Below are positions 46,768 through 59,256 of a stretch of DNA of 64,000 nt, piece by piece. A program made the translations under genes and the position numbers. Numbering within the stretch: the stretch's first letter is position 1; each line of letters begins with the position of its first letter. The notes beneath the pieces were generated by a model that had not been told where the DNA came from, searched no databases, and saw only the letters and a list, made by a program, of their open reading frames with translations. Origin of the DNA: Longimicrobiales bacterium. GTDB lineage: Bacteria; Gemmatimonadota; Gemmatimonadetes; Longimicrobiales; Gaopeijiaceae. Where the stretch lies: assembly GCA_965218295.1 (NCBI GenBank), contig CBDCKN010000015.1, positions 416,001 through 480,000 on the forward strand. Reading direction: 5' to 3'.

Positions 46768-49700
46768 ATGATCCATCTTACGGCCCGCGTTGCGTGGCAC
46801 GACTCCCGTTGGGACGGCACCGTGTGCCGATCCCCTTCCTGTAATTCATTCTGTACGGCGCTTGATCGGATCCGTGACGAACGGGACGACGCGATGGAGG
46901 ACGCGCTCGCTGGCAGGCCGTGGAGTACACTCCGCCCGGAACAGCACCCACCCTGCCGCGCCGAATCCGGGGCGTTCATGAACCGAGCTGAATGGACCCG
47001 ACGCTTCCAGCATCCCTATGCGGGCATCGCCAAATCAGCTGAAACCCACGGACACCTCGAGCCTACCTCGGTCAGAGTTCCTGAGTTTGCAACGTTTGCC
47101 GTCCCGTTCGCATGGATGTTGCGGAGCGAGCAAGATGCGATCGACGAGCGGCTGCCTACCCCGTTGCCTCCTGACGAGCCATCGCCGTTCAATAGTCCGT
47201 GGGTATTCGGCCGAGCACGACAGGAAGCTCTTCTCGATCTTTTTTCAAGTCGCCTCACCGCAGGAGAATCTCTCGTCTTCTTCTACTGCAAGGAGGGCCA
47301 GCCTCTCGGCGACACAGTTCCTCGGCTGGTAGTTGGAATCGGTCGTATCACCAATGTGGATCGCCCGAAGGCGTATGACGTCGCCGACAAGAGGAAGCCC
47401 ACGTACCTCATGTGGGATCTCCTCATTCGCCACTCGATCCGCCCCCAGGGGCACGATGGTTTTCTCTTGCCGTATCACAAGTACATCGAGCCGACTGGCG
47501 ATCCGGTCGAGGATGAGCGCCGGCTAGATCTACTTCGTAAGATTGCAGTACCCGTGGATCCGACCAACATGCGAATATTCTCGTACGCGGCCGAGCATGT
47601 TTCCTCGGACGTCGCGTTGTCTACGCTCGTCCGTTGCCTCGAGTCGGTTCGCGAGATCAGGAAACACGGCATTGCCGAAGGTCCGTGGGAGCTTCGCGAG
47701 GAGTGGCTGAACGACCAGATCGCGATGGCTTGGCAAGACCGCGGCGCGTTTCCTGGTCTCGGCGCGACTCTCGAAGCGATCGGCATGAGGCTCGGAACGG
47801 CGCTTTCCTTGGAGCTGCTCTCGTCGGGTGCTGTGGCGCCTGACGGCGATCCGTGGCCCACCGTCGACGCCATGATTCGGGGTGCCCGCAACGCCCCCCA
47901 AGCTGCCTACGATGGTGACTTGCAGGCCATTCGCGATACTTGGACCAACCTGCCCGAAGAGCGACGTGCGTTGCTGAAGCTCCTGTCACGCTTTGCCCTC
48001 ACTGCTCCGCAGGCCCGGCGATGGTTCGATCAGTCCGAGCGGACGAGGGGAACTGCCGAGAAGGTCTCCGACGAAGAAATCCTTGCAAACGCGTACCGGA
48101 TGAGCGAGGTCGACTTGGGTGATTGGCGTGATTCACCGGTGTCAGTCGGTGTAGTCGATCGGGGTCTTCTCCCCGACAGCGCAATCGCAGCTAAGCATCC
48201 AGTGCCAGCACCGTCATCCGTAGAATCGCCCGGCGATGCGAGACGTGTCAGGGCGACGATAGTAGCTGTCCTGCGCGATGCATCCGCAGATGGTGACTCC
48301 CTTCTCAGCACGTCCGAGGCACTCCAGCGGGTCGCCAACTTAGATCTCGCCCGTCCCTGCGTCATCGGAAGTGATTGGCCGGCCACGCACCAGTGCAGCT
48401 TGGACGGTGTCGTCGATCTGATGAACGTTCCGAGCGGCGAGTCACAATCCCAACCGATCAGCACACTACAACTGACGGAACTGAAGGATCGGGAAAAAAG
48501 ACTCCGGTCAATTCTGTCGAAACGCGCCAGAAAACCATGTGCCCCCATCAATCTTGACTGGAAGCAGCTCCTTGAAGATGCAATCACCAGTGCCGGCGGC
48601 AAATACGAACCTGGAAGCGACCGACACAATAGGGCCATCGAGGAGCAGGCAGTTGCCTTAGATCGACTGTTGTCACGCCGCCTGAGCGTTCTCGTCGGAC
48701 GGGCTGGGACCGGCAAGACTTCTGTCATGGGCGCGCTGACGCTCTGTCACCCGCTTGCCAAGGACGGGATTCTCTTACTGGCGCCGACCGGGAAAGCGCG
48801 TGTTCAACTCGGCAGGGCCACGATGGCCGAAGCGATGACGATCGCTCAGTTCCTCAACCATTTGGGCCGCTACGACGGGGCACGCCAAAGACCACGGTTC
48901 ACCGGCACATCGAGATACCGGAAAGAGAAAACTGTCGTCATCGACGAGTGCTCCATGCTGACGATGGATGACCTCGCAGCAGTATTCGAAGCGCTCGACC
49001 TTGCCCACGTTCAGCGAGTGATCCTCGTCGGCGATCCGAATCAGCTACCCCCAATCGGCGTCGGGCGACCTTTTGCCGATCTTGTCTCGCATCTAGAACG
49101 GACTTCGGAAGAGGCCGACGACGGGACACCGCTGCTCGACGCCCTCGCCCGGCTTACCGTAGAGGTTCGAACGGTAACGGAGACCGACGACGCATCGGAC
49201 ACACTTCGCTTGGCCTCATGGTTCACTCGAGAGCCTCAACCGATAGATTCGGATCGCGTCCTCAGCGATCTTGAACTAGGCTCGAGTTTCAACGACCTCG
49301 AGCTGACGTTCTGGAAGACTCCCGACGAACTTCGTTCACGACTACTCGAAGCGTTCCAGTGCCATCTTGGACTTCGCGACATTGACGACATCGACGGTTT
49401 CAACTCGGCGCTCGGGCTGGACGATCGAGGGTGGGTCCCTTTTGATGCCCCCGAAGGTTCGGCAAAGTGGCAGATTCTCTCACCCGTGAGGAGACATCCG
49501 CATGGCGTGCACGACCTCAACCGCTGGATCCAGAAACATTTCCGCGCCATAGAGCTCACTGCGGCGGCAAACCCCTGGGGGATGAGCCTTGGCGACGAGC
49601 ATATCGTCGTCAAGGATAAGGTCATCCAAACGTCCAACCAGCGGCGAAGTGCCTACGACGGAAAAACGAAGACATCCGACAAACACTATGTGGCCAACGG

Positions 49701-50463
49701 TGAGGTCGGCCTCGTTGCGACAAGAAAGAATGCGTGGCTCAACGTGGTCTTCGCGGAACGTCCCGGGCTGCGGTTCGGGTATCGGGGGAGCGACTTCCCG
49801 GACGGATCAAGCCCGCTCGAACTCGCGTACGCGCTGACGGTCCACAAGGCACAAGGCAGCGAATTCGGCAAAGTCTTCGTCGTCTTGCCCAAGAATTGCA
49901 GGCTGACCCGCGAGCTTCTCTACACGGCGCTGACCCGATCACGTGAGCAACTCGTGCTGCTGATCGAGGGCGATGACGCCGCGACACTCTTCGATCTGTC
50001 GCGACCGGAACAATCTGAGACTGCACGACGGAACACCAACCTTTTCGAGGGAGCCGTGCGGCTGGCAGAAGATGCGATCCCATACGCGGAGCATCTGATC
50101 CACCGAACCGAGAAGGGGCATCTCGTACGCAGCAAATCCGAGCTGGTCATTGCAAACATTCTCCACGGGCTGGAGATCGACTACGAGTATGAGCGAGTTT
50201 GCGAAGGCATGATCGAACCGGGACGCTTACGCCCCGATTTCTCTTTTACGATGCCGGATGGTGACCTGATCATCTGGGAACATCTTGGCATGCTTGATCG
50301 CCCGGACTACAAGCGTGGATGGGATTGGAAGCGCCATTGGTACGAACGCAATGGCTTCGTCGAAGGCAAGACCTTGTTCACGTCGACGGAAGGTGGCGGA
50401 CAAGGCTTAGATTCAACAGAACTGCGAGCCACTGCTCTCGCAGTCAAGGGGAGGCTCGAATAG
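46768..50463 (+). CDS. Large RecD2-like SF1B helicase with uncharacterised N-terminal region and C-terminal PD-(D/E)xK-like nuclease domain
   Basis: Helicase motifs GRAGTGKT, IDECSM, GDPNQLPPIG, TVHKAQGSEF, LYTALTRS. C-terminal VRSKSE..IANIL...YEYE...PDF...WEHLGM. Confidence 0.85.
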   Translation: MIHLTARVAWHDSRWDGTVCRSPSCNSFCTALDRIRDERDDAMEDALAGRPWSTLRPEQHPPCRAESGAFMNRAEWTRRFQHPYAGIAKSAETHGHLEPTSVRVPEFATFAVPFAWMLRSEQDAIDERLPTPLPPDEPSPFNSPWVFGRARQEALLDLFSSRLTAGESLVFFYCKEGQPLGDTVPRLVVGIGRITNVDRPKAYDVADKRKPTYLMWDLLIRHSIRPQGHDGFLLPYHKYIEPTGDPVEDERRLDLLRKIAVPVDPTNMRIFSYAAEHVSSDVALSTLVRCLESVREIRKHGIAEGPWELREEWLNDQIAMAWQDRGAFPGLGATLEAIGMRLGTALSLELLSSGAVAPDGDPWPTVDAMIRGARNAPQAAYDGDLQAIRDTWTNLPEERRALLKLLSRFALTAPQARRWFDQSERTRGTAEKVSDEEILANAYRMSEVDLGDWRDSPVSVGVVDRGLLPDSAIAAKHPVPAPSSVESPGDARRVRATIVAVLRDASADGDSLLSTSEALQRVANLDLARPCVIGSDWPATHQCSLDGVVDLMNVPSGESQSQPISTLQLTELKDREKRLRSILSKRARKPCAPINLDWKQLLEDAITSAGGKYEPGSDRHNRAIEEQAVALDRLLSRRLSVLVGRAGTGKTSVMGALTLCHPLAKDGILLLAPTGKARVQLGRATMAEAMTIAQFLNHLGRYDGARQRPRFTGTSRYRKEKTVVIDECSMLTMDDLAAVFEALDLAHVQRVILVGDPNQLPPIGVGRPFADLVSHLERTSEEADDGTPLLDALARLTVEVRTVTETDDASDTLRLASWFTREPQPIDSDRVLSDLELGSSFNDLELTFWKTPDELRSRLLEAFQCHLGLRDIDDIDGFNSALGLDDRGWVPFDAPEGSAKWQILSPVRRHPHGVHDLNRWIQKHFRAIELTAAANPWGMSLGDEHIVVKDKVIQTSNQRRSAYDGKTKTSDKHYVANGEVGLVATRKNAWLNVVFAERPGLRFGYRGSDFPDGSSPLELAYALTVHKAQGSEFGKVFVVLPKNCRLTRELLYTALTRSREQLVLLIEGDDAATLFDLSRPEQSETARRNTNLFEGAVRLAEDAIPYAEHLIHRTEKGHLVRSKSELVIANILHGLEIDYEYERVCEGMIEPGRLRPDFSFTMPDGDLIIWEHLGMLDRPDYKRGWDWKRHWYERNGFVEGKTLFTSTEGGGQGLDSTELRATALAVKGRLE

Positions 50464-50625
50464 GTTGAATCCGAACTGCGGCAAGAGAATCGAGCGAAAC
50501 GTGAGCTAGAGCACGGGAGTGTTCCGCCATGGTAGACGGAGGAGCCGCCTGCCGCCTCCCAACCGCGGCGCGTACTGCGTCCTAACCGATGAGCCACCGG
50601 AGCGGACACGCAGTTGAGGGTGCCA

Positions 50626-50840
50626 CGCGCTGTCGAGAGCGCTTGGCGTGCCGGTCAACCGGGTGACGTTGATTCTCAACGGCCAGCGGGGCGTGAGCGC
50701 CGATACGGCGTTGCGGCTGGCCAGTTATTTCGGAACGACTCCGCAACTCTGGTTGAATCTGCAGACTTGGGAGCTTCGCCGAACCGAGATCGAGACGGGT
50801 CGCGAGATCGCCGAGCAAGTCACGCCCCGGCATCAGTGGT
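50626..50840 (+). pseudogene. HigA/VapI-family antitoxin remnant (5'-truncated, no toxin)
   Basis: ALSRALGVPVNRVTLILNGQRGVSADTALRLASYFGTTPQLWLNLQ. Confidence 0.75.
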
Positions 50841-51540
50841 GTAGAGGAGGCGTGACCAATCCCCGTCCCCGCTGATGGCACCGGACGGGCCGAGACGATG
50901 GCCCCGCTAGGCCGGATCGTTATGGACGCTGATGGCGGTCGCTGGATGCGGGTACGATTATGGGGCACCTTTGGGGGCACAATACAGATATCCCGAGCCG
51001 ATGATATAATGACTACAACGACTTACGGCCTCGTTAGATAGGCCGGGAGCGACCCGCCGGGGAGGGTGGCAGGTGCGTGCACATGTCCACCCTCCCCGAT
51101 GCCGTACCAGGCATCGAAAGAGGGGGGTCGCTCCGGTCACGGCCGCAAGCGCCGGAGCGGCATCGCCGCTCCGGCGACCGTGGTGCAACCGCAAAGCAGC
51201 CAGCGACATACGGAACCGCTGGCGCGCACATCGCAACGGTGGTTCCGTGCACATGCACCTCGATGTCGATGTGCACGCGCGGTACGCCACGGACCCCCGG
51301 TGATCGGCGGTCAAGATCGGCCCCCCGAGCCCCTCTCGACACGTCTGCAAAACAACCTTCCCATCATAGCGCCGGACTCGTGAATCGGGAAGCGCCAGCG
51401 CGGCGGGTCATCGGCTCGGAGCGGCCTGAACGCCGGAAGGCCCGGCGCACGCGGAATCGCCCGTCTGGCGAAGATGCCTTTTCAGCGCGAAGTTTCAGGC
51501 GCGCAGATCGTGCAGTCCATCATCGAGGAGGAATCGAATG

Positions 51541-51690
51541 ATGGCACGCACGAAACGAAGCCGGCACACGGAACCGGGTACGGGTGTTTCCCGATCCCAA
51601 GACCGGCCTGCTCCAGATCGAGTGGCGCGAGAACGGGCGCAGGCTGAGCAAATCGCTCAAGCACCGCGACTGGGCACGGGCGAAGAGCCG
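51541..51690 (+). pseudogene. Frameshifted N-terminal fragment, probably of an integrase
   Basis: GAGGAGG RBS, MARTKRSR, then in another frame RNRVRVFPDPKTGLLQIEWRENGRRLSKSLKHRDWARAK, then truncated. Confidence 0.45.
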
Positions 51691-51742
51691 GACGCTGTAC
51701 GAGTGTCGGAGGAGTTGGCCGCGGCATGACTGGGCTCGACCG

Positions 51743-51962
51743 TGTCAAGCCCCTCAGCTCTGTCCAAGCCCCTCAGCTCTGTCAAAGATGCTATGCCCTT
51801 CATTGCGCTTCTCCAGACACAGGTGTAAGCTCCTCCTGATTCTCTGTCGCCCACTCGTCCTGATTCTCTGTCGCCCACTCGTCGACCAGCTCCGGTGGGG
51901 GGCAGGCCCACTCGTCCTGATTCTCTGTCGCCCACTCGTCGACCAGCTCCGGTGGGGGCAGG
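51743..51962. repeat. Cluster of short direct repeats (18-bp unit x2; 24-bp unit x3 within a ~57-bp duplication)
   Basis: aagcccctcagctctgtc occurs twice. tcctgattctctgtcgcccactcg occurs at 51834, 51858 and 51915. Confidence 0.85.
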
Positions 51963-52007
51963 GGTAACCGCTCGATGCTTCGCCGGGAATGCGAAAGGAC
52001 CGCCACC

Positions 52008-53303
52008 ATGAATCGAGCACTGTCAGCCTTGGCCGTGACGCTTCTTCTTCTCCGGCCCTCGGTGGCCCTCACCGCGCAAGACTCGAATGGCTGGGTGCCC
52101 ACGGGATGGGAGATCTCCCCCTACATCGGCCTCTTCGACGACGTGCCGGAATTCCATCCGGGCAGCAGCAGCTCCATCTTCGTCGACCCCGCCCGGAACA
52201 TCACGGGCGGCGGGCATGTCGCCTACAACTTCGCCTCCGGCTTGTTCGCCGACTTCGAGGGCGGGTACATGCCGTTCGACATGAGGATCCCGACGAGAGG
52301 CACGGTGGACTTGGACCTGGCGTACTTCAGCGGAGGCGTGGGATACAACCTACCCCTGAGCGGCCGGCTTCAAGCCTACGGAGTGGTCGGCCTCGGAGCT
52401 GCGCACTGGAGGCCTGGAGAACTCGACCCCGAGACGGACCTCAGCCTTGTGTACGGCGGCGGGGTGCGACTCCGCGTGGTGCCTCGCCTTGCCCTGCGGG
52501 TCGAGGCGCGCATGCACCAGACCCCCGACGCACTGGCGAATACGGCTGCCGAACTGGCCGGCTCCGCAGCCCCGTCGGAGACCTTTCGGGGTTGGGGGCT
52601 CTCGCTCGGTGCCTCGTACTTCCTCGGAGGAGAGTCGCAGCGAGACGGGGACGGAGATGGTGTGCTTGATGGCCTGGACGCGTGTCCGGAAACACCCATG
52701 GGTGCTGGTGTGGACGAACGGGGGTGTGCGCTCGACTCCGATGGGGACGGGGTGGCCGACCACGCAGATCAATGTCCCGGAACGCCGGCCGGCGCCGAAG
52801 TGGACGAGAACGGCTGTCCGACGGATGCGGACGGCGACGGCGTCGTCGATGGTCTCGACCGCTGCCCGAACACACCCTCCGGCGCCGAGGTGGATGCGGC
52901 CGGATGCCCTGTTGTGGTCGAGCCGGAGCCGGAGCCGGAGCCCGAGCCGGAGCCCGAGCTCATCTTTGGAAACGTCCACTTCGCGCACGATTCCGCGGAG
53001 CTCGACGCCGCAGCGAGTTCAATCTTGGACGAGTCCGGAAACGCGCTGTCGGACCGTCCGAACGAGCGCGTCCGCGTCGTCGGCCATGCCGACTCCGTAG
53101 GCCTGGAGGACTACAACCTCGTACTGAGCCTGCGTCGCGCGCAGGCGGTGCGAGACTACCTCGCAGGCAACTTCCCGGCGCTCGACGCGGATCGCTTCCG
53201 GATTGCCGGTGCGGGTGAATCTCAACCCGTAGCCGACAACACCACGGAAGACGGACGGCGCCAGAACCGCAGGGTCGAGATCCTGCCCGCGGGTACGCGA
53301 TAA
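52008..53303 (+). CDS. OmpA/OprF-family outer membrane protein with thrombospondin type-3 Ca-binding repeats
   Basis: Signal peptide, beta-barrel, three DxDGDGVxDxxDxCP repeats, (EP)n linker, GHAD...NLVLSLRRA...NRRVE. Confidence 0.93.
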   Translation: MNRALSALAVTLLLLRPSVALTAQDSNGWVPTGWEISPYIGLFDDVPEFHPGSSSSIFVDPARNITGGGHVAYNFASGLFADFEGGYMPFDMRIPTRGTVDLDLAYFSGGVGYNLPLSGRLQAYGVVGLGAAHWRPGELDPETDLSLVYGGGVRLRVVPRLALRVEARMHQTPDALANTAAELAGSAAPSETFRGWGLSLGASYFLGGESQRDGDGDGVLDGLDACPETPMGAGVDERGCALDSDGDGVADHADQCPGTPAGAEVDENGCPTDADGDGVVDGLDRCPNTPSGAEVDAAGCPVVVEPEPEPEPEPEPELIFGNVHFAHDSAELDAAASSILDESGNALSDRPNERVRVVGHADSVGLEDYNLVLSLRRAQAVRDYLAGNFPALDADRFRIAGAGESQPVADNTTEDGRRQNRRVEILPAGTR

Positions 53304-53330
53304 GGATTCCGACCGGAGAACACGGAGAAC

Positions 53331-53368
53331 CGCCCCGGGCGGGGACAGTCGCCTCCCCGCCCGGGGCG
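53331..53368 (+). terminator. GC-rich hairpin after the OmpA gene
   Basis: Perfect 15-bp stem CGCCCCGGGCGGGGA/TCCCCGCCCGGGGCG; weak U-tract. Confidence 0.55.
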
Positions 53369-53964
53369 TTGCCTTGAACTGCCCGTCGGACGAGCTTTCT
53401 CTTCCTCTGCAACTGACGGCGCGGAGTCCGCTAGAGGGTCCTTGAGGCAACAGTCTTCGGCCAGCTTGCTAGCCGGAACGCTGCTATGAGGGGGTATAGT
53501 GCGGCAGGCGGAGGCGGATCTGATCGGGTAAAACCGTCAATTGTTCAGCGAAGACACGCTGAATCTCGGGAGTACCCCTGCTCAGCGCTCTGCCTTGAGC
53601 CTTGCCATCGCCCTCTCGACGTCGGATAGTAAGTACAAGCACGCCAATCCCTAGCGAGTACTGACCTGACCCCCTGAAACGAGACCAGGTGCAATGTTAG
53701 GATCGACCTGGCACTGGACAAGCTGATCGTGGAGGAAGCGGCCAAGGGAAACTTCTGAGCCCCGAGCTGCTGACGGCTAATGGGCGCGGCGTTTCAACGG
53801 ACCGGACCAGCGGCCTCCCGGTTTCGACGCTCGCTGGCCAGATAGGCCGACCGGTCGTCCATGAGTCGGCCAAAGTGGTATCGCTTCGGTCGTAACCGAT
53901 GGAGTGGCAGGCATCTCGAACCCGGATCAAGGACCAGTTGTTTGGGGTCAGCACCGGTCCATTC

Positions 53965-54796
53965 GGATGTGTTGCAACTTTCAAAAATCAGCAAGAGAGC
54001 GACTGGTTGGGTCGACCAGGCTCCGTCTTATGCGGCCACTTCGAACAGCTTGTTGATGAACTGAATCTGTTGCCGAACATCCGAACCGCTCACCCACCTC
54101 GCCTGACCCTTCCGGATCATGTGAATTGCCTCATAATCCTTGGATCGTTCGCCGTGCCGCGTGAAATTCACGAAAGCCCTGCTTGGCCTTCACGCGTCGT
54201 TTGATCGCTCGCTGATCCTGCTCCAGGATGTTGTTCAAGTATTGGATCGGCCGGTGACGGCAACGGTGTCGCAGGATTCCTTCCTGCTTCACTCCTGAAA
54301 TTGCCGCGCCATAGAGGCGTGCTTGGTCCGTATAGATAACCCGGGGCTGCCGATGCGACGGATTCGTCAGCGCCTGGCGGAACAGGCGTTTGGCCGTAAC
54401 GGCATCGCGCAACCTCGAGAGCACGAAGTCGGTCGTGGCGCCGGTGGAATCGATGGCTCGGTAGAGGTAGCACCAACGGCCCTTGACACGAACGTAGGTC
54501 TCATCGACCCGCCAGGACCTGTTGGTTGGCTTGAGATGACGGCGCAGCCGCGCCTCCAGTTCGGGACCGTAGCGCTGGACCCGGCGCCAGATTGTCGTGT
54601 GGTCCGCCTCCAGGCCGCGCTCGCTGAACAGCTCTTCGACATCGCGGAACGAGAGCGAGTACCGAAGGTACCAGCGCACGGCGCAAAGAATCGGCTCGGG
54701 CTCGGTTTGTCGCCACTTGAAGATCGCCGGTCGGATTGTCTTTTTCATGATCTCTTCAGGTTACCAGCCGCTGTCCGCCAAAGTTGCAACACAACC
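53965..54796 (-). mobile_element. IS6-family element (transposase 54131-54748, C-terminus probably frameshifted)
   Basis: IRs GGATGTGTTGCAACTTT / GGTTGTGTTGCAACTTT. AVRWYLRYSLS, WRVDETYV, YLYRAID, YLNNILEQD. No TSD. Confidence 0.9.
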
Positions 54797-55127
54797 CTTC
54801 GAAGTGCAGTTCCGACTCCGTCGTCTTGCTGCCCTCAACTAAATCCATCGCTTTCAAGCTTGTACCACAGATCGAAAGGAGTTAAGTGTCAGGTGAGGAA
54901 TCCGTGGGAAAAGCCCGCATTAGAACCGAGCAGTGCAACGATCCGGACGACCGCCCTTGACATCGGTCAGCCGGTGGGTCATTCCCCGTAATCAAAATTG
55001 CGCGCTATGCGGCCTATCAGGAGGAGCTAGGATCAAAGGGTGTGTAAAAAGAGAGGCGACGTACCTTTCCGCTGAGTAATAACCAGCGAACTCCGGGTGA
55101 CAGCCCGGGGGAAAGGAACGACGCCTC

Positions 55128-56373
55128 GTGAGGAAGAATACGGTGGGACCCGAGGGTGAGTCCAGGACGCCCGTGTGGGAAGTTCTGGAAGAAGTGGTTC
55201 GGGAGAAGGCGCAGGAGTTCATTCAACAGATCTTGGAGGAGGAAGTCACGGAGTTGCTAGGGCGAGAGAAGTCAGAGCGCAGGAAGGGTGGTGGACGCGA
55301 CCGAGGGCTACCGCAACGGATACGGCAAGCCGAGGCGGTTGGCGATGAGCTCGGGCACGATCACACTCCGACGCCCTCGGGTTCGGGGCGTCGAGGAGCG
55401 GTTCGAGAGTCGGGTGCTGCCGTTGTTCGCGAGGCGGACGAAGGAGCTGGGCGCTCTGCTTCCGGAGCTGTATCTGCACGGACTGGCAGAGGGAGACTTC
55501 GAGCTGGCGATGCGGGGACTGCTAGGCGAGGGGGCACCGCTGTCGAAGTCTTCGATTCGGAGACTGCGGGCGGGATGGACGGCGGAGTTCGAGGAATGGA
55601 GCCAGCGTCGCCTGGAGGGCCGTGAGGTCGTCTACGTATGGGCGGACGGGATCTACGTGAAGGCAGGGCTCGAGCGGGACAAGGCGGCGCTACTGGTGGT
55701 GCTGGGCGCGATGCGAGACGGGACGAAGGAGGTGTTGGCCCTGAGATCGGGCTACCGAGAGTCGGTCGAGTCCTGGTCGGAGGTGTTGCGGGATCTGAAG
55801 GCACGCGGCATCGAGGCGCCCCGGCTTTTGATGGCGGACGGCAACGCGGCGATCTGGGGCGCAGTACGGCAGGTATGGCCTGAGGCGGGCGAGCAACGGT
55901 GCTGGAACCACAAGATGAGGAACGTGCTGGACCGACTACCTCAGCGGGAGCAGGGCGAGGCGAAGGATCTTCTCCGGGCCGTGGTCTACGCACCGAGCCG
56001 GGCCGAGGCCCTGAAGGCCCGCGAGGTGTTCGCCCGACGCTATAGGCCGTGGTATCCGAAAGCAGTGGACGTACTCGAGGACGACTGGGAGCGGATGGTA
56101 GCGTTCTACGACTTCCCCGAGGACCACTGGAAGCATCTACGCACGACGAACGTGGTCGAGAGCCCGTTCGCCGCGGTACGGCTCAGGACGACAGCAGCGA
56201 AGCGGTTCAAGCGGGTCGAGAGCGCTACGGCGCTAATCTGGAAGTTGCTCTTGGTGGCTGAGAAGCGGTTCCGAAGGCTCGACGCTCCTCACCTCCTCAA
56301 GGACGTATTTGAAGGAAGAAAGTTCGAAGACGGAAAGCCCGTCTCACACCAACAGCGGAAGAACGCCGCCTAA
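55128..56373 (+). pseudogene. IS256 transposase with +1 frameshift
   Basis: Extra A near 55284 (cgcaggaagggtg vs cgcaggagggtg in copies 1 and 2). Confidence 0.85.
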
Positions 56374-56472
56374 TACGTTTAGGGGATTATACGGTTAACT
56401 TGACGGCGTTCTGCTCGTTTTCTCGCCGGGGGGAGGCTGTTATGGGAGTTCTTCAGTGGCGCGTGTCTGCGC

Positions 56473-56760
56473 TCAGATTCCTTCGTCGTCTGACATGCCG
56501 ATGTAACTGCGGACAGCCTTGTCGAGTTCCCGCGCGATCCGGTAGGCCGCTGGGACGGAGACGTAGTAGGAAACGAAACCGGGGTCGCGATTTTCTTCGG
56601 GGTCATATCCAAAAGTCACACGAAGGATACCACTCCGGTTTCGTGTCTCTCCCGCCACCTCCACGCCTGTCAGATGAAGAACTCGCCGAGATGTTCGGGG
56701 ATCTGCCAACCCTTCTAAGGGATTCGAGTCAGGGTCGGGCACGGGGGGAAGATTTTGCAT
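56473..56760 (-). CDS. Hypothetical passenger protein (95 aa); a plus-strand ORF 56442-56762 overlaps it
   Basis: Globular-looking composition; starts 2 nt after the stop of 56763-57005. Confidence 0.45.
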   Translation of the reverse strand: MQNLPPVPDPDSNPLEGLADPRTSRRVLHLTGVEVAGETRNRSGILRVTFGYDPEENRDPGFVSYYVSVPAAYRIARELDKAVRSYIGMSDDEGI

Positions 56761-56762
56761 GA

Positions 56763-57005
56763 CTAGATTTCGTCGGTGGGTTCGGTGCCTAGGTAGTCTT
56801 CTCTTACGTCCGCCGGAAGCGTCAGGAACAACGCAACCGATTCCCGACCCTCCCCCTCACAGACGGAAAGGGAAACTAAAACTGCATTCGCGTGGGGGTC
56901 CGTATGAATGGCCCACCCTGACACCCGAAATGGACGCTCGGATGATCGAGATGGGTAATCGGCTTCGTCGTAAATTGCTGGAGGATGTGCGGGGACCCGA
57001 GGCAT
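56763..57005 (-). CDS. Hypothetical passenger protein (80 aa); a plus-strand ORF 56759-57007 overlaps it
   Basis: Weak SD sequence; coupled to the downstream ORF. Confidence 0.4.
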   Translation of the reverse strand: MPRVPAHPPAIYDEADYPSRSSERPFRVSGWAIHTDPHANAVLVSLSVCEGEGRESVALFLTLPADVREDYLGTEPTDEI

Positions 57006-57254
57006 GAGCTCAACCTACCCCGGATTGGCGCTTGCGACAATCTCTCGCCCGCCGTATCGTGCGGACGTCCACTATACGCAGGAACCTCAGGTCGGGTTAC
57101 CTGCTGAATACAACAGCCTGATGCTTGGCCGGGGTAGCTCCCCGCGCCTGGGGCAAATAGGCAGGGCTTCCGCATTTTTCCTGCGTGATAGTGGACAACG
57201 GCCCGGCGCCACGTCCGGGTCCCACGTCCACAGTCACGGCGGGAGGCCCCAGTC

Positions 57255-57689
57255 ATGATCCGCTTCGTTTTGATCCTTGCCCTGTTCGCCCCTTTGTTCC
57301 CCTTGCCCCTAAGCGCCCAGACACGCGCGGCGGAAGCCCTGACGAACATTCACGGCGGCGGGAACCGTACGGAGACCCGCCAGCGTTTCGAGTACGTCCT
57401 GCCACGGCTGGCACGAACGTGCTCGGACACCGAGACCGTGATGAACGTCGCCGATGGCTTGGTGTACATGAACGAGCTGATCCAGGAGGCCGGGCTCGGC
57501 ACGGAGGAGGGGGGTTTGCTCGGCTCCACGAACGCGGTCTACAGCCTGACGATGCAGGTTGGGTTGGGAGCTGAGGACGCCGTGACGTGTTCCAAACTTT
57601 GGTCCATGTACGTCACGCTCCGTCAGGGTGGCTTCGCCAAAGAGAAATCGATCAGCGACCTCCTGGCGATCGTAGAGCTCTTCCGCTGA
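57255..57689 (+). CDS. Secreted hypothetical passenger protein
   Basis: GGAGG RBS, signal peptide MIRFVLILALFAPLFPLPLSA, two Cys. Confidence 0.7.
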   Translation: MIRFVLILALFAPLFPLPLSAQTRAAEALTNIHGGGNRTETRQRFEYVLPRLARTCSDTETVMNVADGLVYMNELIQEAGLGTEEGGLLGSTNAVYSLTMQVGLGAEDAVTCSKLWSMYVTLRQGGFAKEKSISDLLAIVELFR

Positions 57690-57752
57690 TCCTTGACACG
57701 TGCAGCAATGCCTGGGTATGCTTGGGCAGGTCTTAAAATCGGGAGTGCACGA

Positions 57753-57914
57753 ATGACCGAGAAGCGGCGGGACAAGGTCGAAGTGCCGGACGTGCGGGCC
57801 GTGAATCCGCGCTACAAGGGCGCCAAGTTGAGCGACGTGGTGCGGGCGCTCATGCGCCCGAAGGACCCCAAGGTCCGGGAAGCTCTGGAACAGAGAGAAA
57901 AGAACACGAAATAG
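57753..57914 (+). CDS. Small basic hypothetical protein (53 aa)
   Basis: GGGAG RBS and a TTGACA-N18-TATGCT promoter (57693-57722). Confidence 0.6.
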   Translation: MTEKRRDKVEVPDVRAVNPRYKGAKLSDVVRALMRPKDPKVREALEQREKNTK

Positions 57915-57929
57915 GGGGGGAGGGGGGAG

Positions 57930-58002
57930 AGGCGCCGCCCAGAATCGAACCGGGACTTCACGCTTTGGCAGGGCGCGTGGCTTACCATTTGCCTACGGCG
58001 CC
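57930..58002 (-). tRNA. Non-canonical tRNA-like gene (GCC in a 9-nt loop, discriminator U)
   Basis: GGCGCCG-TA-GGC-AAATGGTAA-GCC-A-CGCGC-CCTGCCAAA-GCGTG-AAGT-CCCGG-TTCGATT-CTGGG-CGGCGCC-T. All four arms pair. Confidence 0.85.
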
Positions 58003-58086
58003 TGTTTCCTCCCCCTTCCTACCCTATAGAGGTTGGAGGCAACCCCCCCCCGCTATGTCAATAGCGGATGGTCTGACTGGACCACA

Positions 58087-58165
58087 CAAAATAAGTGCCC
58101 AGAACGGTTACCCCCCGCTCTGGGCACTCTCGCATTAGTGTAGCTGCGCGTTTCCGTAGGGTCAA
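58087..58165 (-). promoter_or_regulatory. Sigma70 promoter followed immediately by a terminator-like hairpin
   Basis: TTGACC (58165-58160)-N17-TACACT (58142-58137). Stem AGTGCCCAGA/TCTGGGCACT (58128-58094), then TATTTTG. Confidence 0.6.
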
Positions 58166-58189
58166 TCGTCGGGCCGAAGCCCGGCCCGG

Positions 58190-59128
58190 TCAATCCGCTA
58201 TCAGATCCTTGTACATGAGCCGACGCCCGACCAGCCCGGCGACCACGTGCTCCATTTGCTCCAGCGTGTCTAGTTCCCGGATGTTGTGGCGACCGGCGAA
58301 CTCGGCCACGTACCGATTGAGGTGCTTGGCCGATAGCTTGTGGTAGACGCCCTTGTGGGCGCGCTTGAGCATCGACCAGAAAGACTCGACCCCGTTCGTG
58401 TGGGCGATGTTCCGGACCCATTCCCCGACGCCATGCTGGACGCTCTCGCGGTTCGGTAGGCCATAGTAGGCGCCGCCCTCGTCCGTGTATATCTTGGCCC
58501 CGGGCTTCGAGTGTTCCGCGACGAATCCCTGAACGGTCTCGCGCCGTGAGTCGGGGAGAACCCGGGCAGCAACCTTGCCGGTCGGGCGGTCCTTCATTCC
58601 GACGACAGCCGTCTTGCCAGCGGGACCGCGTCCGACCCTGAGCTTCTTCAAGGCGTGCTTGTTCTTCTCCAGCCCGCCCATGTAGGTTTCGTCGACCTCG
58701 ACCGGGCCATCGAACGTGGCCGAAACATCGGCGAACGCTTCCCGGATGCGGTGGAGCATGAACCACGCAGTCGGCTGGCGGACATCAAGGTCGCGGCCGA
58801 GCTTCATGCTGGAAACGCCTTTGAGGTTCGTCATTTCCAGGTAGATCGCCCAGCCCCATTTCCGGAGCGGCAGCTTGCTATCCTCCATCGCCGTGCCGGT
58901 CTTGAGCGAGAAGTACTGGCGGCAATCGCGGCACCGGTAAGGCATCGGCTTCCCGGTCCCCACGCGGTAGGCGTTCAGGCTCCCGCACTTCATGCAGGCG
59001 ATCTCGCCCCCCGGCCAAAGCCAGGACTCGAACCAACGGGTCGCGCTTGCCTCGGCCGAGAACATATCGGCGATCTCCATCATGGAAACCCCGCTGCGGT
59101 AGTGCTTTCCAGGTCCGCTCTGGGCCAT
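58190..59128 (-). CDS. IS1595-family DDE transposase
   Basis: Zn ribbon CMKC/CRDC, HTH, VEVDETY, IYTDE, HTNGVESFWSMLKR, YVAEFAGRHN. Confidence 0.95.
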   Translation of the reverse strand: MAQSGPGKHYRSGVSMMEIADMFSAEASATRWFESWLWPGGEIACMKCGSLNAYRVGTGKPMPYRCRDCRQYFSLKTGTAMEDSKLPLRKWGWAIYLEMTNLKGVSSMKLGRDLDVRQPTAWFMLHRIREAFADVSATFDGPVEVDETYMGGLEKNKHALKKLRVGRGPAGKTAVVGMKDRPTGKVAARVLPDSRRETVQGFVAEHSKPGAKIYTDEGGAYYGLPNRESVQHGVGEWVRNIAHTNGVESFWSMLKRAHKGVYHKLSAKHLNRYVAEFAGRHNIRELDTLEQMEHVVAGLVGRRLMYKDLIAD

Positions 59129-59256
59129 GCTATCCTCCTATCGTGTAACGTGTTACCGTACTAGGAAGATAGTCTATCGTCAGGACCCCGTCAAGTCACG
59201 CGTATAATCCCCTACGTTTACACACCTATTGACCCAACCTCATCAGGAGAAGCACG

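Follow-up and report, generated by a model that had tools for sequence, protein, structure and literature searches.

A tRNA gene with a cysteine-type body and a glycine anticodon carried as cargo by an IS1595-family transposon of a Longimicrobiales bacterium

In this study, which was based on a 64,000-nucleotide stretch of a Longimicrobiales genome (hereafter the window), a tRNA gene that ARAGORN names tRNA-Gly(gcc) was confirmed as a real feature, lying on the minus strand according to both ARAGORN and Rfam, and was found to be cargo of an IS1595 transposon, a context that was absent from the original prediction for this DNA (Table 1). As in the definition of the family (PMC8101967), DDE_Tnp_IS1595 and an N-terminal zinc ribbon occur in one transposase (Pfam matches PF12762, E 2.5e-37, and PF12760, E 1.8e-6), and terminal inverted repeats, an 8-bp target-site duplication and an empty site are present. 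The empty-site joints (56373 to 59213, with 8 shared letters) were found in three of four runs, and the element was inserted between the stop codon of an IS256 transposase and the right end of the IS256-family element to which that transposase belongs (about 59217-59253). IS elements that carry passengers are termed transporter IS; the present one shares with such IS1595 elements the single zinc-ribbon/DDE transposase, the terminal repeats starting with GG and the 8-bp duplication, but differs from the described ones in its cargo, to which hybrid tRNA genes and a structured RNA not described before belong. No family was named for the cargo ORFs of the window by Pfam, PADLOC or the ESM Atlas. 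The 53-aa ORF, which is preceded by a sigma70-like site at 57693-57722 (a consensus match, 10/12), is common in IS1595 elements, with 52 hits including itself, and occurs in 21 of 314 genomes of the family. Between the terminator-like hairpin and the tRNA, a short operator-like palindrome (58053-58068) has a central TTGACA hexamer on the minus strand, and no -10 matching this hexamer was found. The neighbouring region, 46768-56373, is rich in mobile elements and contains a 1231-aa RecD-like helicase, an OmpA/TSP3 outer-membrane protein and IS6-like and IS256 transposases.

Table 1. Features of the transposon and its surroundings (positions within the window)
Feature	Position	Strand	Remarks
IS256/Mutator-family transposase	55288..56373	+	PF00872
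Left 8-bp target-site duplication	56374..56381	+	TACGTTTA
IS1595-family transporter element	56382..59212	.	2,831 bp; occurs once in the assembly
Terminal inverted repeat	56382..56413	+	starts GGGGATTATA; 85% complementary to the other end
Conserved structured non-coding motif	57068..57218	+	upstream of the 144-aa ORF; not in Rfam
144-aa cargo ORF	57255..57689	+	signal-peptide-like N-terminus (by eye); 8 hits including itself
Conserved 53-aa small ORF	57753..57914	+	runs towards the 3' end of the tRNA; a read-through transcript would be antisense to it
Pyrimidine-rich 3' trailer	57911..57929	-	pairing partner of the leader
Hybrid tRNA gene	57930..58002	-	Cys-type body (G1-C72, G2-C71, C3-G70, U73, 3-bp D stem, A15:U48); CCA not encoded
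Anticodon loop	57964..57972	-	9 nt, or 7 nt (C32 U33 G34 C35 C36 A37 A38) with C·A closure; GCC at 57967-57969
Purine-rich 5' leader	58003..58027	-	predicted pairing with the 3' trailer extends the acceptor stem; z -3.05, 1/200 shuffles
Sigma70-like site, then terminator-like hairpin	58093..58165	-	site 58165-58137 (9/12), 15-bp hairpin 58129-58093, in the transposase-tRNA gap; consensus matches only
IS1595 transposase	58190..59128	-	312 aa, intact; zinc ribbon and DDE; on the strand of the tRNA and upstream of it
Terminal inverted repeat, transposase end	59181..59212	-	
Right 8-bp target-site duplication	59213..59220	+	

The predicted cloverleaf has a 7-bp acceptor stem, a 3-bp D stem, a 5-bp anticodon stem that closes nine nucleotides, a 5-bp T stem and U73, which bears out the perfect acceptor stem and T-arm that had been described from the sequence; the acceptor branch is 7/5 and the variable region has 4-5 nt. 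Its score against the Rfam covariance model RF00005 is 49.4 bits, above the gathering score, and U8, A14, G18G19, U33 and the T loop are conserved. It is this match, together with the compensated pairs described below, that argues for the reality of the tRNA and not the fold energy, because the 73-nt fold is about as stable as its shuffles (z -0.73, 44/200). The 9-nt anticodon loop of the original prediction is that of the minimum-energy fold, but the register of the Rfam alignment, in which C·A closes the 7-nt loop CUGCCAA, is the better reading, because the gene is only one base longer than the tRNA-Cys of its host (73 vs 72 nt). Likewise, the description of the loop as the Cys loop plus two C is literally correct, but the net excess is a single base, since the variable region is one nucleotide shorter (4 vs 5 nt). 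Put most simply, the gene thus has an ordinary loop, Y32-U33-GCC-A37-A38, in which the GCC (Gly) anticodon lies directly 3' of U33, with C·A as the basal pair of the stem and a single base in excess. Leader-trailer helices like that of the window were also found in four other elements (L001, L232, L231 and L223).

The body of the tRNA is of the Cys type, as had been proposed: when the loop was masked, the best match among the host tRNAs was Cys (96), followed by the next isotype at 70. With Table 1 of PMC9976931 as the standard, five of the six bacterial Cys determinants are present (U73, G2-C71, C3-G70, G34 and C35, without A36) compared with four of the six for Gly (U73, G1-C72, C35 and C36, without C2-G71 and G3-C70). 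A tRNA-Cys anticodon has G34, C35 and A36 in a 7-nt loop; here G34 and C35 are followed by C36, and the tRNA is of dual identity in the sense that the identity of its body differs from the meaning of its anticodon. The host tRNA-Cys(GCA) gene, which lies on another contig (G000:C6:64250), is about 80% identical and shares the acceptor stem, U73, the 3-bp D stem, G34 and C35, while the window tRNA differs from it in C36, the rebuilt anticodon stem with C·A, A15:U48 in place of G15:C48, one net extra base, the flanking helix and the mobile location. The claim of intact stems was upheld as well, since the eight stem substitutions relative to the host gene break none of the 20 pairs and change three of them on both sides, a result equalled in only six of 200,000 random placements. 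Reassignment of a codon in the host was set aside, as the host also has Gly(GCC) and Cys(GCA) genes of the normal kind. A full-length CysRS was not found in the host assembly, which is 90.7% complete; because the enzyme is present in five of five relatives, this is probably an assembly gap. A remnant at an attachment site, which is a partial gene that recurs as a direct repeat where an integrated element ends on its distal side (PMC9897764), was rejected as well: both halves of the tRNA are intact, and the gene is internal to the IS and on a contig other than that of the host tRNA-Cys. Scars of the att type do occur elsewhere in the host, namely a 3' duplicate of the tRNA-Cys about 150 bp downstream of it (G000:C6:64458-64476) and a 3' remnant of tRNA-Ser(CGA) (G000:C9:286890-286971). 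The same assembly also has two near-identical tRNA-Leu(CAA) genes and two tRNA-Ile2-like (CAT) genes.

A BLAST search with the window tRNA matched 103 of 201 genomes of the order, and the 29 non-self loci that were fetched comprised 28 canonical tRNA-Cys genes and one locus without a tRNA, with a transposase in none. The D-arm pattern of the element type was exact in the host (twice) and in one further genome (G274) among the matches listed for 314 genomes of the family, and in two of 301 genomes of the class. No tRNA match came from the second class genome (G615) or from 15 further near-matches, one weak match of 15.6 bits being dropped, and among the matches listed a single sequence has the 9-nt/GCC loop. 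One unpublished genome (G002) is counted only in the tallies of 201 order and 301 class genomes. The host carries a second IS1595 element (L001) with a Cys-bodied tRNA (G000:C13:71138-71210, minus strand) that has an 8-nt loop, reads AGC after U33 and is flanked by a leader-trailer helix of 13 bp. Between this element and its sister L232, the transposase DNA is 92% identical (25 of 148 four-fold sites differ) and the tRNA 76% identical; the tRNA stems differ at eight sites, three pairs being compensated on both sides and one being broken (191 of 200,000 in the null), and selection on the RNA fold therefore continued inside the transposon. Covariation, which had been proposed as a check, was thus seen both against the host tRNA-Cys and between sister elements. 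On the transposase tree, the 15 tRNA-bearing tips require 12 changes compared with 14.4 for shuffles (p 0.018), which indicates slight clustering with mostly separate gains or cassette exchange. The cargo is modular and often swapped; in one related element, 250 bases were replaced by 253 others.

A search around relatives of the transposase yielded 227 loci, of which 225 contained the transposase and 170 both ends, giving 132 distinct elements. The named records were mostly metagenome-assembled genomes from many phyla, and many of the source genomes are, judging by their names, presumably those of sponge symbionts. A tRNA-like gene was carried by 15 of the 132 elements, and since the other 117 had no tRNA match, the tRNA is not needed for transposition. 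A corrected covariance model (R2) returned the same full-length genes and one degenerate unit (L173), which raises the count to at least 16 of 132. Five viral loci had no in-element tRNA, and all plasmid relatives of the transposase were below 60% identity. Weak model matches were dropped (L023, L053, L059, L143:1916, L229, L232:3198, L319, L354, L358 and L389), as were relaxed ARAGORN matches that lay in coding sequence without model support (L006:5959, L036:6167, L188-L190, L197, L217-L219 and others).

Twenty full-length genes were scored, 16 of them in bounded elements (L356 is confirmed as in-element and lies outside the set of 132) and four adjoining an IS1595 transposase with ends that were not fixed; the truncated units L223, L205b and L173 and the duplicates L207, L176 and L222 stand outside the 20. 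The bodies were of the Cys, Arg, Leu, Ser or Gly type and agreed with the amino acid of the anticodon in 2/20 genes, compared with 11/11 controls (nine genes outside elements and two chromosomal Cys genes of relatives; Fisher p 9e-7, a value overstated by kinship). Both matches are weak: in L215, which lacks a long arm, Ser leads by 2 points, and L318 combines G32 and C37 with an 8-nt loop, so that a cognate anticodon together with a normal arm was found in none of the 20. The body classifier is noisy (27/40 in leave-one-out) and disagreed with our own assignment for seven genes (L215, L326a, L326b, L336, L057a, L231 and L036), among which its body matched the anticodon for L215 only. U73 was present in all eight genes called Cys-type, which is partly circular. 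Read after position 33, the anticodons were those of Ala (9), Gly (5), Ser (2), Val, Leu, Trp and a stop (1 each), that is, Ala or Gly in 14 genes; the scored genes are not independent, and in the Cys bodies one insertion alone gives an Ala anticodon. Because G3·U70 occurs in none of the 20, the nine genes with Ala anticodons are not tRNA-Ala. The two Leu bodies have ACC and CGC and the two Ser bodies UAA and UUA.

The acceptor stem was complete (7/7) in 19 of these genes and the T stem (5/5) in 17, and the frame of the loop was kept, with Y32 in 18, U33 in 19 and R37 in 19. A perfect 7-nt loop on a 5-bp stem was found in nine genes, all with a non-cognate anticodon, while the anticodon arm was imperfect or off-length in the other 11; in L001, L232 and L336 the best pairing gives an 8-nt loop with GCA one base 3' of its usual place. 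Loops of 6 to 9 nt occur, so what the genes have in common is a swapped anticodon and not a large loop, which weakens the weight that the original prediction had put on loop enlargement. Even the truncated or degenerate L223, L205b and L173 keep the acceptor and T arm; L223, from the closest sister element (transposase 94% identical), is an internally deleted Arg-type unit with a similar flanking helix. The position and orientation of the tRNA vary among the elements, the other cargo of which includes RmrTA, methylase-nuclease fusions and a CapP-like protein. Pfam named no aminoacyl-transferase family among 52 cargo ORFs, so that the earlier suggestion of a non-ribosomal aminoacyl donor gained no support, and the scanned cargo ORFs yielded no gene for a synthetase.

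The explanation that we tentatively place first, at somewhat less than an even chance, is a weakly charged mistranslating hybrid tRNA that would insert Cys at GGC and GGU and would be kept as selfish or defensive cargo. A missense role (Cys at Gly codons) had already been among the original suggestions and remains the leading idea. Transcription would come from the transposase side, RNase P and 3' processing would free the tRNA from the leader-trailer helix, and CCA addition would complete it. GCA is a major determinant for CysRS (PMC9976931), and the window tRNA may therefore be barely charged; as the missing A36 should weaken charging by CysRS, and with decoding presumably via the C·A-closed 7-nt loop, a low-level substitution of Gly by Cys at GGC/GGU would be expected. 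In a crude count over long host ORFs, GGC ranked fifth among the codons by use. Across the family, a kept loop frame and discriminator with a changed anticodon would fit decoding tRNAs that deliver a wrong amino acid. For bacterial Leu and Ser, no determinant in the anticodon appears in Table 1 of PMC9976931, and the Leu- and Ser-bodied genes would thus stay chargeable; mistranslation fits these four genes best, because LeuRS and SerRS are independent of the anticodon. The benefit to the element is the most tentative step: the tRNA might act as an RNA toxin (in addiction or abortive infection) or as a stress inducer, and the flanking helix, together with an antisense transcript from the converging side, might keep the toxin in check. 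The toxin view draws on Ser-identity allo-tRNAs with Leu anticodons, which inserted Ser, were lethal to E. coli and occur close to toxin-antitoxin genes (PMC5389517), and on the RmrTA, methylase-nuclease and CapP-like cargo; against it, no antitoxin was identified. A mutator role like that of E. coli mutA was considered and set aside. Against mistranslation stand the imperfect or off-length anticodon arm in 11/20 genes and, unlike in tRNA-ProX, the lack of a synthetase among the cargo ORFs scanned; the deleted Arg-type unit in the closest sister and the same imperfect arms also argue against a uniform function. A broader and unlikely extension would be that IS1595 elements repeatedly capture host tRNAs and reprogramme their anticodons to the most-used codons (Ala, Gly), making RNA-only mistranslation toxins that are silenced by leader-trailer pairing and convergent antisense RNA, constitute a novel kind of addiction or abortive-infection module and confer mobile ambiguity of the code.

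That the gene is an assembly artefact of a normal tRNA-Cys is hardly credible. The loop length had been marked for verification in sequencing data, and a 343-nt Logan contig (run X1) that covers 57915-58257 is identical to the window across the tRNA, with 0 differences and 0 gaps, and so speaks against an assembly slip, but it has a depth of 2 and may come from the source sample, hence it is not an independent biological replicate. It is the sole spanning public contig; none was found in runs X4, X7 and X8, and runs X2, X3 and X5 had no coverage of the tRNA. Eight stem differences, with compensation, from the host tRNA-Cys and the recurrence of odd loops in other genomes further contradict an artefact. 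Scarcely more probable is an odd cognate tRNA-Gly, charged by GlyRS as a harmless extra supply for a common codon: the ARAGORN name and four of the six Gly determinants agree with it, but C2-G71 and G3-C70 are missing from a Cys body, the host has a normal tRNA-Gly(GCC) and the pattern of the family is non-cognate. A frameshift-promoting tRNA, in which the 9-nt loop (8-nt in relatives) would present a shifted or four-base anticodon and cause +1 slips, had also been proposed and is improbable. The minimum-energy fold and the displaced GCA of L001, L232 and L336 are in its favour, as is the mitochondrial tRNA-Gly of a glass sponge, the 9-nt loop of which was considered in connection with +1 frameshifting (PMC5009743), in a source that also notes that enlarged loops need not mean more than triplet pairing. 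The loop length is not conserved in relatives, however, nine of the 20 loops being normal 7-nt ones, and the window transposase is intact, with no split cargo gene seen in the ORF list of the window.

That the gene is a host tRNA which was captured and now drifts or is being silenced, as a passenger without current function, is somewhat more plausible, yet we still regard this as quite unlikely. Such a passenger would agree with the swapped cargo, with the degenerate copies L036, L223 and L173, with a broken transposase in 2/15 tRNA-bearing elements vs 2/117 others (p 0.06) and with compensations that, relative to the host tRNA, could come from another donor. Pairs compensated between sister elements contradict it, as does the acceptor stem, intact in 19/20 genes although none of them combines a cognate anticodon with a normal arm; both tRNA halves are moreover intact, unlike in att remnants (PMC9897764). 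The main competitor, which is less probable than mistranslation and which we consider rather unlikely, is a non-decoding tRNA mimic, in which the acceptor/T half and the elbow would act and the altered anticodon would keep the RNA uncharged and away from translation, for instance as a decoy for tRNA-targeting toxins or nucleases, as an RNase P processing tag or as a transcript stabiliser. The anticodon arm is indeed the weak part in 11 of the 20 genes, truncated units retain the acceptor and T arm within the same flanking helix, and the genes differ in where and in which direction they lie in the element. For Cys, Arg and Gly, identity rests on the anticodon (PMC9976931), and some allo-tRNAs are inactive in translation and were proposed to accompany transposons or toxin-antitoxin systems (PMC5389517). 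A mimic does not explain why 18-19 of the 20 genes retain Y32, U33 and R37 while the anticodon changes, why 14 of the 20 anticodons cluster on Ala and Gly, or the four Leu and Ser bodies, the charging of which would not be stopped by an anticodon change.

Hybrid-identity tRNAs as such are already known; what is new here is their repeated occurrence as cargo of IS1595 transposons. In a mostly open-access search, no description of IS1595-borne hybrid tRNAs was found, and the supplementary gene-context figures of PMC5389517 could include some. The allo-tRNAs and irregular tRNAs of that paper, which PMC7609411 also treats as dual-identity tRNAs, resemble the present genes in that body and anticodon disagree, the anticodons are diverse, and toxin-antitoxin or transposon-related genes adjoin them; some mistranslate and are toxic and others are inactive. 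They have an 8/4 or 9/3 acceptor branch, a long variable arm and mostly Ser identity (PMC5389517), whereas the window tRNA has a 7/5 branch and a Cys body (Arg, Leu, Ser or Gly in relatives) and its kind resides in IS1595 elements bounded by terminal repeats and target-site duplications. The 7/5 branch and the 4-5-nt variable region also led us to reject membership of the allo-tRNAs and of the selC* tRNA-Cys. The tRNA-ProX of Streptomyces (ProA, ProN and ProT; PMC11415595) are natural bacterial dual-identity tRNAs with A34 anticodons such as AGC, which L001 and L231 share; membership was rejected, since their Pro body, A33, A15-A48 and dedicated, linked synthetase ProRSx (PMC11415595) were not found here. 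The window tRNA thus lacks the defining features of both classes and may work like them. Laboratory suf mutants are frameshift suppressor tRNAs with enlarged loops. Natural enlarged anticodon loops are rare (PMC5009743); some members here share the 8-9-nt loops of such suppressors (PMC5009743), but loop size is not kept across the 20 genes and no dependent frameshifted gene was seen.

The described natural mistranslating bacterial tRNAs that we found form a few special families (allo-tRNAs and tRNA-ProX). Small bounded transposons whose tRNAs were gained many times from several bodies would be portable 2-5-kb units in which the purpose of such tRNAs could be tested, be it toxicity, phage defence, mutagenesis or transposition rate, and would supply natural hybrid scaffolds for code engineering. 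Annotation tools list such genes as false isoacceptors, as with the tRNA-Gly called in the window. If mistranslation holds, such tRNAs would probably bring wrong amino acids into proteins, and mobile DNA would be a source of translation errors; if the genes are non-decoding mimics, they would still form an undescribed class of transposon RNA cargo.

Several relatives deserve separate mention. A Ser-bodied tRNA with a UUA anticodon (L117:77-165 and L400:4694-4782, genome G175) lies downstream of a more distant IS1595 transposase and is a candidate natural ochre suppressor. The in-element tRNA at L336:4168-4259, with U73, a Cys-like D stem, a long variable arm and the anticodon UGC, recalls the selC*-type tRNA-Cys, but its branch is 7/5. 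The units at L205:5298-5364, L173:4109-4176 and L326:2186-2256, two of which have a degenerate D arm, share the loop CUCCAAA and possibly form a separate small family. The tRNA-bearing element L231 (G267:C3) carries an RmrT/RmrA toxin-antitoxin pair, and its transposase has an in-frame TAG, as does that of L336. The structured non-coding motif of about 150 nt, which also occurs at two other sites of the host (G000:C13:70338-70477 and C3:197621-197766) and in 50 of 182 IS1595 loci, had no credible Rfam match at E<=10 and may be an undescribed leader or antisense-type RNA; a resemblance to phage C4/CI leaders is unsupported. Two-sided changes were found at 11 of its 19 consensus pairs, and by eye a pseudoknot is possible. 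The motif is present in nine of the 15 tRNA-bearing elements and in 29 of the 117 others (p 0.012).
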